A stretch of 45,359 nt of DNA from Escherichia phage Mt1B1_P10: sequence record MT496971.1; one strand, 5' to 3'. The translations under genes were made by a program, and so were the position numbers. Positions 6,338 through 45,359 of the stretch are shown piece after piece. The stretch's first letter is position 1, and every line of letters begins with the position of its first letter. The notes beneath the pieces are model-generated. The model was not told the origin of the DNA and searched no databases. It saw nothing but the letters and a program-made list of their open reading frames with translations.

Positions 6338-6355
6338 CTATAGTGTCCAGTAATT
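6338..6355 (-). promoter_or_regulatory. Phage RNAP promoter
   Basis: Minus-strand AATTACTGGACACTATAGAAGG overlapping the large terminase stop; upstream of the paralog pair and lysis genes. Confidence 0.7.
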
Positions 6356-8252
6356 AATAAGTCCTTGAAATCCTTGCAGAAAGTGTATTTCGATTTGCCG
6401 ATTTACTCCTGTAATTCTGACCGTACACTCTTTGCTGCATAGCCACGGAAGTGTTGGTTACTCTTCGCTCAGTGCCATAATCTCCATAGAGCATCGCCCT
6501 ACGGAGGTGAGGTGTGTTCATAGCATGGATGTAATCGCGCATCTCCTGCGCTCTGAGGCGATTAATCCGTGTAACCTCATCATAGTCTATCTGAGAAGTT
6601 AATTGCCGTATAGCGCCATACAGAGCGTCTAAGCGGTCATCGTGCCGGAGGCTGTTCTTCTCAATCGTGATGTTCGACATTTGATTGAAAAGGCTGTAGG
6701 ACATGCGTAGCTCAAGCGGATAGTTCTGTACCGAATCAAAGTCCGATTTCACCATCTCTGCGTTAAAGATGAGCCTGTGGGCCGCCATGAGTGGCTCTAG
6801 CGTCTCAATGATACGCAACTCTTTCTGTCCGGTGGCGTAATCCTCCTCCAGAGTCACAGGCCATTCTCGTTCAAAGTAAGGCTTAATTACCGCCTCAAAC
6901 GCGCCATGACCAAAGTTCTTTTCAATGAATACCTCTTTAACACCAGCCTGCTTTGCGGCCTGCACAATGCGATTCAGGGACGATTCGCGGTATCCGCCTG
7001 GCACGCCGAAGCACTGATACACGTAAATGAATGTGCCGTGCAGGAAGACAATCGCTACACCCGTTTCATCTCCATTCTTACCGCCGCCCGCTGGGTCGAT
7101 ATACATAATCTTGCGGGTAACAGCACCCCATTCATATGGGCGAGCCACAGGTCGATACATGAAGTCTGTAGGTTTATTGCCATACTTCGGTGCATCTCCA
7201 ATGATGTTGATGGAGTCGTTGCTCCACGTAGGCATCACAGGGACTTCCTCAGTACCGAATGAAGTGAAGATGAGATTGTTTAGACGAAGTGGGTATCTGT
7301 CAGCATCCATCATGCGAGTGTTAAGCATGAACTGAAGCTGGAACTTAGCCGCACCCTGAGAGATTTCCTTCTCAATCAGCACTTCATCGTCGTACATTTC
7401 AGGTGCGCAAGGTGCACCACTGTTACCGTCCAACCCATAACCAGAGCGAAGTGCGGGGTTGTCCTTCATATCCTGCACAATCATAGGTGCAAGGAAGTCA
7501 CCATAGCATTGCTCCTGCTCCACTGAAGGATAACGTGCAGTCCAGATACGAACAGAGTAACCACGAGCAGGTAAGTTATTGTAGATAGAGTTTACGTTCT
7601 GAGGTGTCCCAAGGTAGATGATGTCACCAAATTGGTTAATAGATTCAAATTCCTTGGTCAACTCCTCAAGCAATGCACGGCCTGCTGCTGTACGAGCATT
7701 CTGCATCGATTCAACGTCATCCGCTAGAATAATATCAGCACGAGCACCCTGCATACCTGCTTCGATTGAGTAACAGGATACAGAGGGGGACTTATCGCTA
7801 CCACGTAGGGTGTAATGAATCTCAAATGCTTTAACGGATGCACGGTCCCCTGCGTAGATATCCGGCAGCATAAACTCAAGGAAGTCTAGGCCACGGAAGA
7901 TTTTCACCACCCAACCAGCGATTTCCTCTGCTCGCTTAGCGTTTTGGGATACAACCATGATACGCTTATGCGGTTCGTGGATAATACGAAATACCGTATA
8001 GATTGCTGATAGTGTTGTCTTAGCGATACCACGAGGCGCTTCGATGAGGCGATACTTATGCCCGTAGAATAGGAACTTCAAGATATCAGCCTGCATACGA
8101 ATCAGATGAGGGTTGCCTGCAATCAAGTTATGGATAACTGTATCTGCAAAGAGAAGCAAACCTTCCGCTGTATATTTAAAAGTGTCTTGTAGTTCTTTAA
8201 GGTTTTCCCACCGCTTTAATGCCTCTGCCTGTGATTCTCTAGCCTTTGCCAT
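6354..8252 (-). CDS. Terminase large subunit (T7 gp19-like), 632 aa
   Basis: Walker-A-like RGIAKTT, LQFMLN motif and overall similarity to T7 gp19 as recalled. Start moved to ATG at 8252 (SD AAGGAG), which overlaps the HNH stop. Confidence 0.9.
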   Translation of the reverse strand: MAKARESQAEALKRWENLKELQDTFKYTAEGLLLFADTVIHNLIAGNPHLIRMQADILKFLFYGHKYRLIEAPRGIAKTTLSAIYTVFRIIHEPHKRIMVVSQNAKRAEEIAGWVVKIFRGLDFLEFMLPDIYAGDRASVKAFEIHYTLRGSDKSPSVSCYSIEAGMQGARADIILADDVESMQNARTAAGRALLEELTKEFESINQFGDIIYLGTPQNVNSIYNNLPARGYSVRIWTARYPSVEQEQCYGDFLAPMIVQDMKDNPALRSGYGLDGNSGAPCAPEMYDDEVLIEKEISQGAAKFQLQFMLNTRMMDADRYPLRLNNLIFTSFGTEEVPVMPTWSNDSINIIGDAPKYGNKPTDFMYRPVARPYEWGAVTRKIMYIDPAGGGKNGDETGVAIVFLHGTFIYVYQCFGVPGGYRESSLNRIVQAAKQAGVKEVFIEKNFGHGAFEAVIKPYFEREWPVTLEEDYATGQKELRIIETLEPLMAAHRLIFNAEMVKSDFDSVQNYPLELRMSYSLFNQMSNITIEKNSLRHDDRLDALYGAIRQLTSQIDYDEVTRINRLRAQEMRDYIHAMNTPHLRRAMLYGDYGTERRVTNTSVAMQQRVYGQNYRSKSANRNTLSARISRTY

Positions 8253-8682
8253 TTCGCCACTCCTTAAAGAGAGAAGAAACTCTTGGTTCACTTTTACCAG
8301 TAAGTCTAGCGGTTTCTGCTACACCCTTACCTTGCAAGAAGCAATCTTTTAATCTTGCTAAATAGCTATTTAAGGCACTCCTATCATTTCCATTGCATTT
8401 TAAATAGTTATTCTCGCTTCTTGTTACCCACTCCAAGTTGCTAACATCATTGTTGTGCTTATCGCCGTCTTTGTGGTTTACTTCATTATTAGTTTTAGGT
8501 AAATACTTATAAGCCACTAATTGATGAACATAGACATTACGCCATTTACCTTCTTTATTTTTAATTTTAACTGCTAAATAACCCCTACCCGCCTTGAATG
8601 GTTTGAGAGGGGTGCCACCCTTTGAAAGGATGACACCAGAAGGTAAGATGGTATAACCTTGAGATTCACACCATCTATGCAT
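8239..8682 (-). CDS. HNH homing endonuclease (NUMOD4-like N-terminus, HNH core, C-terminal HTH-like), 147 aa
   Basis: VNHKDGDKHNNDVSNLEW and HQLVAY motifs; paralog of the HNH at 38540-38896. ATG at 8682 uses the last two codons (GAGGAG) of the upstream gene as its SD; its 3' end overlaps the terminase start. Confidence 0.8.
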   Translation of the reverse strand: MHRWCESQGYTILPSGVILSKGGTPLKPFKAGRGYLAVKIKNKEGKWRNVYVHQLVAYKYLPKTNNEVNHKDGDKHNNDVSNLEWVTRSENNYLKCNGNDRSALNSYLARLKDCFLQGKGVAETARLTGKSEPRVSSLFKEWRNGKG

Positions 8683-8683
8683 A

Positions 8684-8983
8684 TCACTCCTCTTTTGTAA
8701 ACTGAATTATCTTACCACTGGATGCCTCTCGGATAGCCTTGAGGCGCTTAGATAACTTGGACTCTTCCTGCTGTGCAGCAGGTGTAGCGGTAATACCATT
8801 ATCAAGAACCCACTTACACATAGCTCCAATGTCTTTACCAGACACTAAATGCAATGCTGCATCAGGATCCCCTTCTATAGTGTCCAGTATTGCCTGTGCT
8901 TTCTTATTAAAGATTCTGGTAATAGCACCATGCAGAATGCCAACCTCATCCTCTGTAGCTGCATGTTTATTGTGTACGCTCAC
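8684..8983 (-). CDS. Putative terminase small subunit (gp18 position), about 99 aa
   Basis: Assigned by synteny (holin, this gene, large terminase). Only plausible in-frame start is GTG at 8983 with SD GGAGGG; the track's TTG start at 9028 is unlikely. No motif-level confirmation. Confidence 0.45.
   Translation of the reverse strand: MSVHNKHAATEDEVGILHGAITRIFNKKAQAILDTIEGDPDAALHLVSGKDIGAMCKWVLDNGITATPAAQQEESKLSKRLKAIREASSGKIIQFTKEE
8875..8892 (-). promoter_or_regulatory. Promoter-like sequence inside the small-terminase ORF
   Basis: Minus-strand CAATACTGGACACTATAGAAGGGG: core from -12 to +4 matches the consensus, upstream AT-rich part differs. About 190 nt upstream of the HNH start. Confidence 0.45.
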
Positions 8984-9161
8984 GCTTCTCCCTCCAAATC
9001 TTGAACTTATTATAAAACCAGTCCCCAATTTGCAACACGGTATAAATGAATGTTGCTATTAACACCCAATTATCCCAACTGATACCGAGGAAGTACCCAC
9101 CTGATACGAGTGCAGGTGGCGCAAGCTTCACACCACTATCTACCAGTTCGGAGTTAATCAT
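8967..9161 (-). CDS. Holin, class II (T7 gp17.5-like), 64 aa
   Basis: ATG with SD AAGGAGG; ...WVLIATFIYTVLQIGDWFYNKFKIWREKRE parallels T7 gp17.5 as recalled. Confidence 0.75.
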   Translation of the reverse strand: MINSELVDSGVKLAPPALVSGGYFLGISWDNWVLIATFIYTVLQIGDWFYNKFKIWREKRERTQ

Positions 9162-39354: not shown

Positions 39355-41982
39355 TTATGCGAAGCAATAGTCAGATACTAAGATTTCGTTAAGGTCAAAC
39401 TCTCCTTGCTCTGGCACTTGGATTCCGGTGTCTACTAACCAGCGCTCTTCATGCTCATCTAACAGGCTTTGCAGAGCGTTACGGCCTTGATACATCTTCA
39501 CCATTTCTGCCCTTAGACTATCACGTAGGTCTGCGGTGCGGCCTGCATGAGTACCGAAAGAGTCATGGATAACTGCAATGGAGGTAATACCTTTATCCAC
39601 TAGGTCGCACACCGTTAGAATCAGGTGGCTAGCATCATGGCCGTGCACGAAGTTAGGAGCAGCAGCGCCCATCATAGCCGTTTCATCCACTACGTCCGTT
39701 TCAATCTGTAGACTCATCTTGATTTCTCCCATCAGGCAAGTGGATACGCGGAGCATATCAGTAGCCATAATCTTTTGTTGCAGAATGAAGCCTGTGGGCA
39801 AGGTATACTCTAAGCCTTCATTTCTTTTAGCTGCGAAACGGGCAAGTTGACGAATCATTTTCATTGCCACTATAGGAGCTTTAACCACTTCCGAAATAGA
39901 AGGCCAGATTAAAGCTGTCATATAGTTATAAGCTGCGCTAGGTGTCAGGCTGTCTTTGCGGTCATTATCAAAAGGATGTACAGGATTGGCGGTACGCCCT
40001 TCCGCAATAGCCCGTTGGGCCTCTTTTTCTTCCAAATCAACGATATAATCAATCACTGACTCACGGCAGGTTAGACGTGTGCTGCCGTAAGGTAGTGTCA
40101 TTACGGGCTTTTTGGTCAGGCCGCGAGTGATTCCTATCATATCCCACGCACTAGCCATGCTACGCAGTTCCGCACCTGTTAAAGTCACGCTGCCAGAAGT
40201 GAAGGTTTCCGCATCCTCTGCATTCATGTATGCATAATTCTTCTGAATTACTACCTGCGCAACGGCACCATAAATATCTTGAGGGGAGTCAGAGGGCTTA
40301 AGGTTTACCGCTTTCGCACCTACTGCATCGCGTAGCATAGCACTGTAGTGCTGGATACCAGAACAACTACCATCTTGATGGACGGGGAGGTGCGTCATGA
40401 ATTGGTCTTGCGTGCCTTCATCCAGTGCATCCAGATAACGCGCATATTCAAAGCACCAAGCAAGGAAGCCGTAAGGGGAGTCGGCATTTACCCATTGAGT
40501 GAAAGTAAGCGGATCCGCTGCAATGTCGCGGCACATGTCTTGAAATTCACTATCCAGCACGTTAGCGGTGCGCACGTCAAAAGTCTTCTTATCCCAACCC
40601 CAGTTATTAGCCCCGTTCACCAAAAACCATTTAAGCGCCTCAGCGCTATCAAGGCGCTGCCCTTCGGTAAAACGGAGCAATGCCTTGCCTAAGTCGTTTG
40701 ATTGCGGAGAGAGCGTGCTAGATTGCGCGTAGACGCGGCTGCGGCTGTCCAGTGCATACACGAAGTAGATGGCGTCAAACTGGCTGTATTTACGTGCCTG
40801 CCCGACCATGCGGACGGTCGCCGCCGATTTGCTGCCGCGCTTAGTTTCAGCGGTATACAGCTTGGTACATTCGCCTTTCCAGTTGATGAAGGCTTGCCAT
40901 TGTTCCGGCGTTAGCATCTCTTTAAGTTCACGGCCTCGCAGGTGCTGGAACTCTAACGGCACTGGATTAGCTGGCTTGTTCTCACGGTCGATGAGCGGTT
41001 TAAAGGAAGGCACACCATAGCCGAGGTCTAGACGTATAACGTCCTCCACAACCTGTAAAACCTCTTTATTAACCTGCCACTTAGTTGCCTGCAAAGCGTT
41101 AACAGCCTTATAAACGGCTGGCATTTGCTTTTTGGTCAGCTTGCGGACGTGCTCACGATTGCCTTTTACCAGACGAATACGGCTTGCTACTTTCTCAGTA
41201 TGAAACCCACCGTTAAAAGGTGATACCCAAGGGCGGGGAGGTATAACGCAAGGTGCATAGGCAGGGCTGAGCTGCGCTACATGTTCCTTAAATGCAGTTA
41301 TCCACTCTCCAACATGTTCACTGGTCTGTAAATAGTAAACACCATGCTTTCCGCCGTTAGTGCGCAAGGTACGAAGGAAGACAGGTTGACCATTGAAGAA
41401 TACACTATTCTCCAATATTTCGAGCAAGGTCATACCGATTTGCAGCAAGGTGTCTTTAGGCCATGCCTCCCAACGGGAGAAATCCGCGTCACGGTCAGCA
41501 ACAGATTTCTCAGCTACTACCGCTACGTTGTGCGCATGACGATAAGATTTAGTCTTGCTAGCCTTAAGTGACTTCTTCACTTTCTCAAAGTACTTAGCTG
41601 CGTGACCTTCCAGCTTGCTAAAACGTACTTGGTCTTCGATGCGGTCCGCTACATTCATAGCGATTGCTTGTAAGGTAACGTCTGTATTCAGCATATCCAT
41701 AACGATTTTCATGGTGATATATGCTGCCACTTCGTTTCCTACGCAGTTAATGAAAGCTAATGCACGTGGTGCACGACCTCTCTTGCCTTCGTATTCTTCC
41801 TTGTAAGCCTGAATACCTTCCGCCATAGGTGCGATTAGTTCGGACAATAAGCGGCGATTCCATGCCGTGTCTGATTCATTACCGGATGCAATCTGGCGTT
41901 GTTGGTCCGCTTCAAAGCGACGGATGCCGCCGTTAAACATTTCTTCTTCAAGTTGAAGTTGAATAGCGTGTAGGTCTTGCAT
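39355..41982 (-). CDS. Single-subunit DNA-directed RNA polymerase (SP6-type), 875 aa
   Basis: N-terminus [32 protein letters not shown] matches SP6 RNAP as recalled; catalytic motifs [16 protein letters not shown] and [11 protein letters not shown]; ATG with SD AGGAG. Confidence 0.95.
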
Positions 41983-43852: not shown

Positions 43853-44017
43853 TTATAAGATACTATTCACAAGTTTATCTATTTTAGCATTAATTGCAAC
43901 TACTTTACTATAAAGTTTATCGTGCTTGCTCTTGTCTGTGTTAGCTTGCCAAGCGGCATAAGCAACAGCAAGTTTCTCTTGCAATGCATCATAGCGTTTA
44001 CGTTGTGCGTTAGTCAT
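43853..44017 (-). CDS. Hypothetical small early protein, 54 aa (below track cutoff)
   Basis: ATG at 44017 with SD AAAGGTGA; MTNAQRKRYDALQEKLAVAYAAWQANTDKSKHDKLYSKVVAINAKIDKLVNSIL. Confidence 0.4.
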   Translation of the reverse strand: MTNAQRKRYDALQEKLAVAYAAWQANTDKSKHDKLYSKVVAINAKIDKLVNSIL

Positions 44018-44143
44018 GATAGTTCACCTTTGTTAGTAAGCCTATCAAGGCACTAGCCAGATTGTTAAAGAGCGGGATGTTTAAAGACGTCGCCGTCTTG
44101 ATGCTTAATGTAACCTTGTATGCCGTGGTTGTCAATAGTTAAT

Positions 44144-44368
44144 TTAGAGATTTGTCGTGATTACTTCATCGTAATCGTAATCTTCACTGCCTAGATACTC
44201 AGTAATGACTTGGTTGTCATACTCAGATACTAAGGTAACTCGGTGATATTCAGTGTCGTAATCTATCAAATAGTGATACACATCAACGCCTACACCAGCT
44301 TGCATCATATCATCACGGAAGCGAATAGCTTCGCTAGCTGATTCAAAGAATACCTCATGTTGATACAT
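44144..44368 (-). CDS. Hypothetical acidic early protein, 74 aa
   Basis: ATG with SD GAGGGAGGG overlapping the upstream stop; D/E/Y-rich (...EYLGSEDYDYDEVITTNL). Confidence 0.55.
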   Translation of the reverse strand: MYQHEVFFESASEAIRFRDDMMQAGVGVDVYHYLIDYDTEYHRVTLVSEYDNQVITEYLGSEDYDYDEVITTNL

Positions 44369-44547
44369 TATTTACCCTCCCTCAACTCATCTATCATGTT
44401 ACGGTATTGATTAACTGTATCGGTCCAACCTTCGTTAAGAAAGCGGTGATACAAGGCTAACTCATCATCTGTAAGTAATTCATTGTTACGAATCATGTAG
44501 CACAACAGAGTGAAGAGAACGGACAGTTCACGGTTATTTAATGTCAT
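44368..44547 (-). CDS. Hypothetical early protein, first gene of the genome (start uncertain), about 59 aa
   Basis: ATG at 44547 has SD GAGGT; the upstream ATG at 44589 (73 aa) lacks an SD. Confidence 0.45.
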   Translation of the reverse strand: MTLNNRELSVLFTLLCYMIRNNELLTDDELALYHRFLNEGWTDTVNQYRNMIDELREGK

Positions 44548-45092
44548 AGTTAATACCTCATTCAATAAGTAGTTAACCACGGCATACATAGGTTACACTA
44601 AGCAAATTGTTAAAGAGCAATGTAAGCGCTAGTCTCTTCGTATGCCTTACTAGCTGGCTACTAGGTGCCTCAGCACCGCCTACGTGATGCATAGTATTAC
44701 ACTAAGATTATCTTGTCAACACTAAGTTACCATCACTAAGAATAAGATAGGTTGTCTAACGTGTTAGACTAAGGAAAAGCAATAGATACAGAGATAGGAT
44801 AGGCTAGGTTGGCTAGGTTTCTGGTGTTCCTCCTACTGCATCTTATTACTATTACCTACTCTTAGCGGTCTACCGACCGCGACCTAATTGCATCTTATAG
44901 CTTTAGCTATGCAATCACTAAGAGAAGACACTAAGACTTACTAAGGTACACTACTAAGTTGATACTAAGCTAAGCACTAAGGCTTTAACTAAGGTAGCCC
45001 ACTAAGTCTAACCTAAGCCATCCATCAGGATTATACCAAGGATACACAAGCGCGGTGAGTGTAGCGTAACGCAGTGGAGCGAAACGAACAGA

Positions 45093-45359
45093 TAGCCCAC
45101 CCACGCCCACCCTGTCAAACGCTCAGGAATGGCCCTAAAACGGCCTGTGTAAGCCCTAAGCGGTTGCACTAAGGCAATCACCTTGTCCAATACTAAGGCG
45201 TGCCCTAGCGCTTCCTAGGCGTTCTCCTTGTGCAGCCACTAAGAGCAGACCTCGGCAAACCCTAGGCCACCCGTCGAAGACGTACCAGCCCAGCCCAATT
45301 CCCAAGCCAACCGCAGCGCGGCCCCCATATGGGGAAAATCCGGCGAGGGCGAGGGCGAG
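45093..45359. repeat. Direct terminal repeat, copy at window end (genome left end)
   Basis: Identical to bases 1-267. Confidence 0.9.

Follow-up and report, generated by a model that had tools for sequence, protein, structure and literature searches.

The genome of Escherichia phage Mt1B1_P10 (MT496971.1) carries many copies of the heptamer CACTAAG close to both of its ends. This raises the question of what these repeats are and whether they serve concatemer processing, packaging, or replication priming, the roles that an earlier note had proposed from their clustering at the termini. The window analyzed here is the entire record, 45,359 nt in length. It has a terminal repeat of exactly 267 bp (positions 1–267 are identical to 45093–45359) and encodes an RNA polymerase of 875 aa (39355–41982, − strand) that is 99.7% identical to the enzyme of coliphage K1-5; its DNA is approximately 95% identical to that of Vectrevirus T145P2, K1E, and mutPK1A2. 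Therefore, the record represents the complete genome of a K1E/K1-5-like coliphage, which by its sequence is assigned to the SP6 supergroup (Autographiviridae, Molineuxvirinae, Vectrevirus). Every long ORF is on the − strand and the record is the reverse complement of the conventional orientation; the region 44690–45010 is the conventional left end (early and first ejected), and on the gene-sense strand the motif reads CTTAGTG. Both terminase subunits are encoded (small, 8684–9028, − strand; large, 6354–8291, − strand). An ORF of 147 aa for an HNH endonuclease (8239–8682, − strand; PHROG E=1e-29) is situated between the small and large terminase genes, which in SP6 and Pm5460 are adjacent, with no HNH ORF between them. 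The terminal features, in the coordinates of the record, are as follows.

1–267, no strand assigned: terminal repeat copy at the conventional right end, with heptamers at 75, 99, and 145.
268–318, − strand: conserved stretch of approximately 50 bp that, in a concatemer, directly precedes the repeat at its outer edge; the sense strand reads CACAAAGTAACCAAAGTCAAAATTTTGATATAGGCGTGTGT, then the repeat.
353–478, − strand: right-end copies of CACTAAG at 353, 439, and 472, very probably a weak counterpart of T7 SRR.
44596–44602, − strand: isolated CACTAAG adjoining GCTCTTTAACAAT.
44691–44719, − strand: early host-RNA-polymerase promoter-like site, TTGACA-17-TACTAT, with 10 of 12 consensus matches, within array B.
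44700–44773, − strand: array B, with CACTAAG at 44700, 44720, and 44734 and GACTAAG at 44767.
44838–44915, − strand: conserved element separating array A from array B; the direct repeat TGCATCTTA (at 44838 and 44889) flanks its two inverted repeats.
44916–45018, − strand: array A, very probably the counterpart of T7 SRL, with 10–11 CTTAG(T) cores spaced 10–13 bp apart, 75 bp internal to the conventional-left repeat.
45087–45093, − strand: ATCTGTT spanning the boundary between repeat and unique DNA; the motif occurs just twice on the sense strand of the genome.
45093–45359, no strand assigned: terminal repeat copy at the conventional left end, with heptamers at 45167, 45191, and 45237, one CCTAAG, the palindrome CCCCATATGGGG, and a terminal (GGCGAG)3.

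Frequency and orientation of the heptamers

The genome-wide count, which the earlier note had suggested comparing with expectation, was clearly in excess: YACTAAG occurred 43 times on both strands, against 15.9 ± 4.1 in shuffled sequences, and 43 copies were reached in 0 of 100 shuffles. The copies were also found where they had been reported, with ten YACTAAG in 44700–45006, three inside the left repeat copy of the record (75, 99, and 145), and three beside the same copy (353, 439, and 472). The right-hand region additionally holds the variants GACTAAG at 44767, AACTAAG at 44987, and CTAAG variants at 44970 and 45013, and each of the two repeat copies carries three heptamers. An unbiased scan covered every hexamer and heptamer after removal of one repeat copy. 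The most strongly end-enriched hexamer was ACTAAG (CTTAGT in the sense direction): 19 of its 33 + strand copies fell in the 1150 bp of non-coding DNA at the termini (binomial P=3e-22), where no − strand copy occurred. Against the possibility, also raised at the outset, that the ends might be no richer than the rest of the genome, ACTAAG was found at 16.4 versus 0.32 per kb, a difference of approximately 50-fold. In the interior, YACTAAG was near chance (approximately 23 copies on both strands, with approximately 15 expected).

All 19 terminal copies are in the sense orientation and none is antisense, and the same was observed in Salmonella phage SP6 (14/0) and Proteus phage Pm5460 (12/0), where the end enrichment of CTTAGT gave P=5e-18 and 5e-16, respectively. 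When a position matrix was built from 22 terminal CTTAG copies, the information was confined to CTTAGTg (6–7 bp), and the flanks were random. Meanwhile, interior CTTAGT was rarer in the sense than in the antisense direction in all three genomes (14/23 here, 8/17 in SP6, and 8/25 in Pm5460); because all genes are on one strand, this deficit probably reflects coding-strand bias or codon usage and not avoidance of the motif.

Array layout and conservation in the SP6 group

The heptamers at 44690–45010 had been described as directly internal to the right-hand repeat. They are internal to it but do not abut it, as the array ends 75 bp from the repeat, and they form two separate clusters (44916–45018 and 44700–44773) with a different conserved element between them. 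Tandem Repeats Finder reported array A at 44917–45018 with a period of 48, that is, 4 × 12. The copies of array B flank the first sigma-70-type early promoter and occupy its spacer. The site equivalent to this promoter is annotated as a putative host promoter in the Pm5460 record; the array B arrangement is also found in K1-5, Pm5460 retains the copy in the promoter spacer, and SP6 has two copies immediately upstream of the −35. Farther inward, the sequence GCTCTTTAACAAT beside the isolated heptamer resembles the sequence upstream of T7 gene 0.3 and was taken, by this resemblance, as a putative R0.3 RNase III-like site; R0.3 is annotated at the corresponding location in the T3 record.

At the right end, the heptamers at 439 and 472 enclose a conserved hairpin-forming segment just past the last small ORF, and this unit of CTTAGTG, hairpin, and CTTAGTG is kept in nearly all relatives (K1-5, SP6, Pm5460, and metagenomic relatives). 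The enclosed segment is AAGGGCAGACCTAGGTTTGCTC (439–478); its stem is kept in relatives. The changes within it are compatible with G:U pairs in the sense direction but not in the antisense one, a pattern suggestive of a hairpin formed in RNA, at the 3' end of the late transcript. The right-end unique segment of Mt1B1_P10 also differs from that of K1-5 and SP6, which have a small ORF in place of its G10 segment and extra heptamer. The run concerned (C10 at 421–430, G10 in the sense direction) is absent from relatives and may be prone to assembly or sequencing error, and only one metagenomic relative (L010) shares the surrounding segment with its extra heptamer at 353.

The element between arrays A and B contains the inverted repeats ATAGCTTTAGCTAT (44897–44910) and GCGGTCTACCGACCGC (44865–44880). 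Three pairs of the first stem keep their pairing through two-sided changes in 4 of 11 sequences, and in relatives the stem reads ACATGC..GCATGT or ACAAGC..GCTTGT with pairing retained; in Pm5460, the second stem is replaced by a different one. An Rfam scan of 44000–45359, which includes this element, returned nothing meaningful, and the element has neither an adjacent promoter nor a terminator-like tail. It may act as a DNA hairpin or be an element of the origin type. Another palindrome, GTCTAACGTGTTAGAC (44754–44769), lies approximately 35–40 bp upstream of the −35 of the early promoter and overlaps the GACTAAG at 44767. Over 23 bp (91%), it can still be aligned with Erwinia phage Era103, as can no other stretch of the left end; it changes symmetrically to GTCCAACATGTTGGAC in Pm5460 and could be an operator or a hairpin.

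A comparison with the ends of related phages, another of the checks proposed earlier, revealed the same arrays at the same places in K1-5, SP6, and Pm5460, and 13 metagenomic junctions agreed with these in array position. In K1-5, K1E, and SP6, the heptamer, its position, spacing, and orientation are as in Mt1B1_P10; the repeat differs in length (267 bp in Mt1B1_P10 versus 174 bp in SP6). An IMG/VR search with the RNA polymerase supplied close relatives only, and distant lineages were taken from GenBank records. We aligned 16 distinct SP6-group junctions, namely those of this genome, K1-5, SP6, Pm5460, and 12 IMG/VR contigs. Across these junctions, the cores of array A were 90% identical to Mt1B1_P10, whereas the spacers were 63% identical (Mann-Whitney P=2e-10). 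Furthermore, the spacing of 10–13 bp was held while the copy number ranged from 6 to 11, and one relative (L007) lacked two of the units. The array region as a whole is 82–92% identical to other Vectrevirus genomes. The arrays of the SP6 group were already present in genomes published in 2004, and no description of them was found in the literature searched, which excluded the primary SP6 and K1-5 genome papers.

Likeness to the terminal arrays of T7 and other lineages

Arrays of short repeats in T7 were reportedly described by Dunn and Studier (1983). In the T7 sequence, arrays of CCTAAAG are located inside the repeat, right after ATCTGTT, and before the right repeat copy, and we take those at the two ends to be the SRL and SRR of these authors. 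Mt1B1_P10 resembles T7 in many respects. Its linear genome has an exact short terminal repeat, a T7-like RNA polymerase, and a terminase; cores of approximately 7 bp, here 10–13 bp apart (12–13 bp in T7), lie internal to the repeat, with copies also inside it, as in T7; the copies have a single orientation at both ends; and the array starts just after the ATCTGTT on the repeat boundary. The two genomes also share a CCCCATAGGGG-type palindrome toward the repeat's outer end, as well as heptamer-like copies near the first early promoters. In contrast, the core itself differs (CTTAGTG versus CCTAAAG, with only C-Y-T-A-n-n-G in common), the right-end set of three copies is much smaller than T7 SRR, and no phage promoter equivalent to phiOL or phiOR stands beside the arrays; instead, a conserved double-hairpin element fills the stretch from the array to the early promoters. 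The left-end cores of the other phages compared are as follows.

T7: CCTAAAG.
T3: CYTAAAG.
K1F: CCTACAG and CATAAG.
BA14 and Kvp1: CTTATG(G/T).
Era103: CTTATGG plus other repeats.
gh-1: CCATAGG.
phiKMV and LKA1: CCCTGG.
Syn5: no array, with ATCTGT on the repeat boundary.

The cores of the enterobacterial arrays mostly fit CYTANNG on the sense strand, and the Pseudomonas and cyanophage relatives have other motifs or none. The core sequence varies by lineage, so that identity of the core is not required of a T7-type array. Taken together, the CACTAAG arrays very probably correspond, in the SP6/K1-5 group, to the SRL and SRR arrays on either side of the T7 terminal repeat; they are ordinary for the family and represent no new kind of system.

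Two further observations concern the ends of these genomes. In Era103, the left end carries CTTATGG together with a unit of 35–41 bp that contains GCAAGGTAATGGCTAGGCTA and occurs in three copies (L026, 1–830), and the right end carries CCAAGGTA 4–5 times at a spacing of 12–13 bp (L027); because its repeat families differ between left and right, the two ends of a genome need not share a motif. Within the terminal repeat of Mt1B1_P10, the palindrome CCCCATATGGGG lies approximately 25 bp from the physical left end (232–243 and 45324–45335), and (GGCGAG)3 occupies the very end (250–267 and 45342–45359). A CCCCATAGGG-type palindrome is found at the same position in most Autographiviridae examined (T7, SP6, Pm5460, Era103, K1F, and gh-1), is weaker in T3, BA14, and Kvp1, and is merely a C-rich stretch in phiKMV, LKA1, and Syn5.

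The concatemer junction and the possible role of the arrays

The motif ATCTGTT is the core of a class II pause/termination signal for T7 RNA polymerase at the concatemer junction (bioRxiv 10.1101/2021.01.11.426313). We found ATCTGT on the same boundary in T7, T3, K1F, BA14, Kvp1, gh-1, Syn5, SP6, K1-5, and Pm5460, with ATCTATC instead in Era103, and the BA14 record annotates a "concatemeric junction" at the ATCTGT boundary. In Mt1B1_P10, the main array starts just past this motif. The best-conserved sequences of the junction are the two repeat boundaries, not the heptamers. At the inner edge, the conserved sequence is TTGACAG...GGGCGTGGGCTA followed across the boundary by TCTGTT. At the outer edge, the stretch at 268–318 is nearly invariant across 15 SP6-group junctions and recognizable in Era103. 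As a candidate for the sequence that is cut or recognized when the left genome end is made, it is preferable to the heptamers.

In a concatemer, replicated genomes would be joined head to tail with one copy of the repeat between them, and the junction would consist, in order, of the right-end heptamers, the repeat with its three heptamers, ATCTGTT, and the main array, with all copies in the same direction. Maturation of a T7-type genome requires that the repeat be duplicated (PMC5000459, PMC10438801). In T3 and T7, packaging specificity maps to the terminal 5% of the genome, and gp19 is involved in it (PMC3276506). We put slightly below an even chance on the proposition that the cores of 6–7 bp, approximately 12 bp apart, are iterated sites read by a phage-encoded protein or complex that marks the junction. 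The obvious candidate for the reader would be the terminase or its small subunit. Such a complex could assemble on both sides of the repeat, act beside the polymerase pause at ATCTGTT and the conserved repeat boundaries, and mark the junction for cutting, for duplication of the repeat, and for the start or end of packaging; cut-site specificity is probably carried by the boundaries. A phage-encoded reader is favored because the motif is constant across the hosts of the SP6 group (E. coli, Salmonella, and Proteus) and differs among lineages of E. coli phages (K1-5, T7, K1F, and BA14 have differing heptamers).

Short boxes around a cut site have precedents in other phages. At lambda cosB and SPP1 pacL/pacR, the cut site has short repeated boxes to either side, and these are bound by the small terminases. 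The heptamers of Mt1B1_P10 likewise lie on both sides of the repeat and within it, and by analogy with the cosB R sites and pacL-pacR they could organize a multimeric small terminase. The copies here are more numerous (10–11) and the cores shorter than in those systems, and maturation in the T7 group, unlike that at cosB or pac, also needs a pause of the phage RNA polymerase and duplication of the repeat. The terminase genes themselves gave mixed indications. The TerS/TerL identity ratio was 0.91–1.01 where the heptamer was the same and 0.77–0.90 where it was different, a small drop that is confounded by overall divergence, and Era103 and BA14 have CTTATG in common with unrelated small terminases. 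The right-end set of only 2–3 copies counts against a packaging role, and Chung and Hinkle (1990) reportedly did not find most of SRL to be essential in T7 plasmid-packaging assays. Moreover, array B overlaps the early promoter, and some copies adjoin ribosome-binding sites and the RNase III-like site, so that some copies may serve another purpose. The role in concatemer processing or packaging put forward in the earlier note is therefore upheld only in part: layout, orientation, core conservation, and likeness to T7 speak for it, but the best-conserved cut-site sequences are the repeat boundaries. As an overall explanation, an SP6-group counterpart of SRL/SRR with a presumed role in concatemer processing or packaging is the best available, and we would give it an even chance of being correct.

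Replication priming, the third role proposed, was not supported. The primase sites are GTC in T7 and GCA in SP6, and CTTAGTG/CACTAAG contains neither on either strand; nor is there a promoter-type origin near the ends, since all 11 exact sense copies of the phage promoter core ACACTATAG are interior (4663–39253), none is terminal, and the nearest is more than 4 kb from either end. Two other identities were considered and rejected. CACTAAG resembles ACACTATAG minus one base, as a relic of a promoter might, but it is on the wrong strand, the preceding base is unconserved, and no promoter lies near the ends. The sequence TGGTATAAT upstream of array A, a possible promoter transcribing the array, occurs only in this genome and is absent from K1-5 and SP6. 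An iteron-type origin, in which iterons of 17–22 bp adjoin an AT-rich unwinding element and an initiator gene, does not match either, as only 6–7 bp are conserved per unit and the spacers are random. The records of the relatives annotate no initiator gene at this left end: SP6 has small unnamed ORFs there, and Pm5460 has small hypothetical ORFs and host promoters.

Other roles of the arrays have to be weighed against the one preferred here. The heptamers could bind a phage protein or act in RNA to modulate the first host-polymerase promoter and the processing of early and late mRNA, their association with the ends being secondary. This would account for array B bracketing and filling the spacer of TTGACA-17-TACTAT, for the conservation of "(CTT)AGTG-TTGACA" across the SP6 group, for the isolated copy that follows the RNase III-like GCTCTTTAACAAT site, for the right-end CTTAGTGTAA that often stands just upstream of a Shine-Dalgarno sequence and ATG of small ORFs, and for CTTAAAG in and near phiOL and A1 of T7. 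We nevertheless consider it unlikely, because the largest array, with its 10–11 copies, lies upstream of the early promoter and is not itself preceded by a conserved promoter (the TATAAT seen here is absent from K1-5 and SP6), copies occur inside the repeat too, and a second early promoter (44135–44107) has no heptamer. An aid to replication or recombination, whether in duplication of the repeat, in repeat-mediated formation of concatemers, or in an end-proximal origin with the hairpin element, would fit the position of the arrays next to the repeat and to the double inverted-repeat element with its compensatory stem changes, as well as the repeat duplication required in T7-type maturation (PMC5000459, PMC10438801). 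The heptamer's lack of the T7 and SP6 primase trinucleotides, the absence of a phage promoter, the origin element of T7-type phages, within approximately 4 kb of either end, the inability of direct 7-bp repeats to form hairpins, and the lack of an evident initiator gene make this improbable as well.

A physical role of the first-ejected, last-packaged end, with phased flexible TA cores shaping or gripping the DNA in the portal or tail channel or during entry, is very unlikely in our estimation. The big array is indeed at the leading (conventional left) end, and a regular spacing of approximately 12 bp would make the sites spiral around the helix; but copies are also present at the other end and within the repeat, lineages differ in motif composition (e.g., CCCTGG in phiKMV and LKA1), and it is the exact core that is conserved rather than composition, which argues for a reader protein. 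Finally, the arrays could be without function, a slippage-derived or hitch-hiking simple repeat in non-coding DNA, as the variation of copy number among relatives, including the two units missing from one of them, might suggest. Against this stand the difference in conservation between cores and spacers given above, the fixed orientation, the retention of the motif across genera that are only approximately 77% identical in terminase, and the analogous arrays across two subfamilies. With cores conserved over spacers and the spacing held, a neutral repeat is so strongly disfavored that we regard it as practically ruled out.

For the preferred reading, a role in concatemer processing or packaging, the wider distribution of the arrays allows a tentative extension, which we consider possible but doubtful. 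The enterobacterial T7- and SP6-like arrays may all be forms of one ancient C-Y-T-A-n-n-G signal with a pitch of approximately 12 bp, read by a conserved phage packaging or maturation protein; positions 5–6 would then be a lineage code, and the right and left sets, one to each side of the repeat, would resemble lambda cosB (initiation) and cosQ (termination).

The arrays, together with ATCTGTT at the boundary and the conserved flanks of the cut site, mark out the concatemer junction of phages of the K1-5/K1E/SP6 type. These phages are used in therapy and engineering, and rebooting, trimming, or assembling their genomes should leave the parts of the junction undisturbed; the same parts help to locate the true ends when an assembly is circularly permuted. 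Furthermore, the conserved cores, free spacers, pitch of approximately 12 bp, and lineage-specific heptamers of the form CYTANNG provide a handle on the function of T7-type arrays. If the reading as one ancient signal is true, the 40-year-old question of the T7 arrays would become testable by swapping heptamers among K1-5, SP6, and T7.
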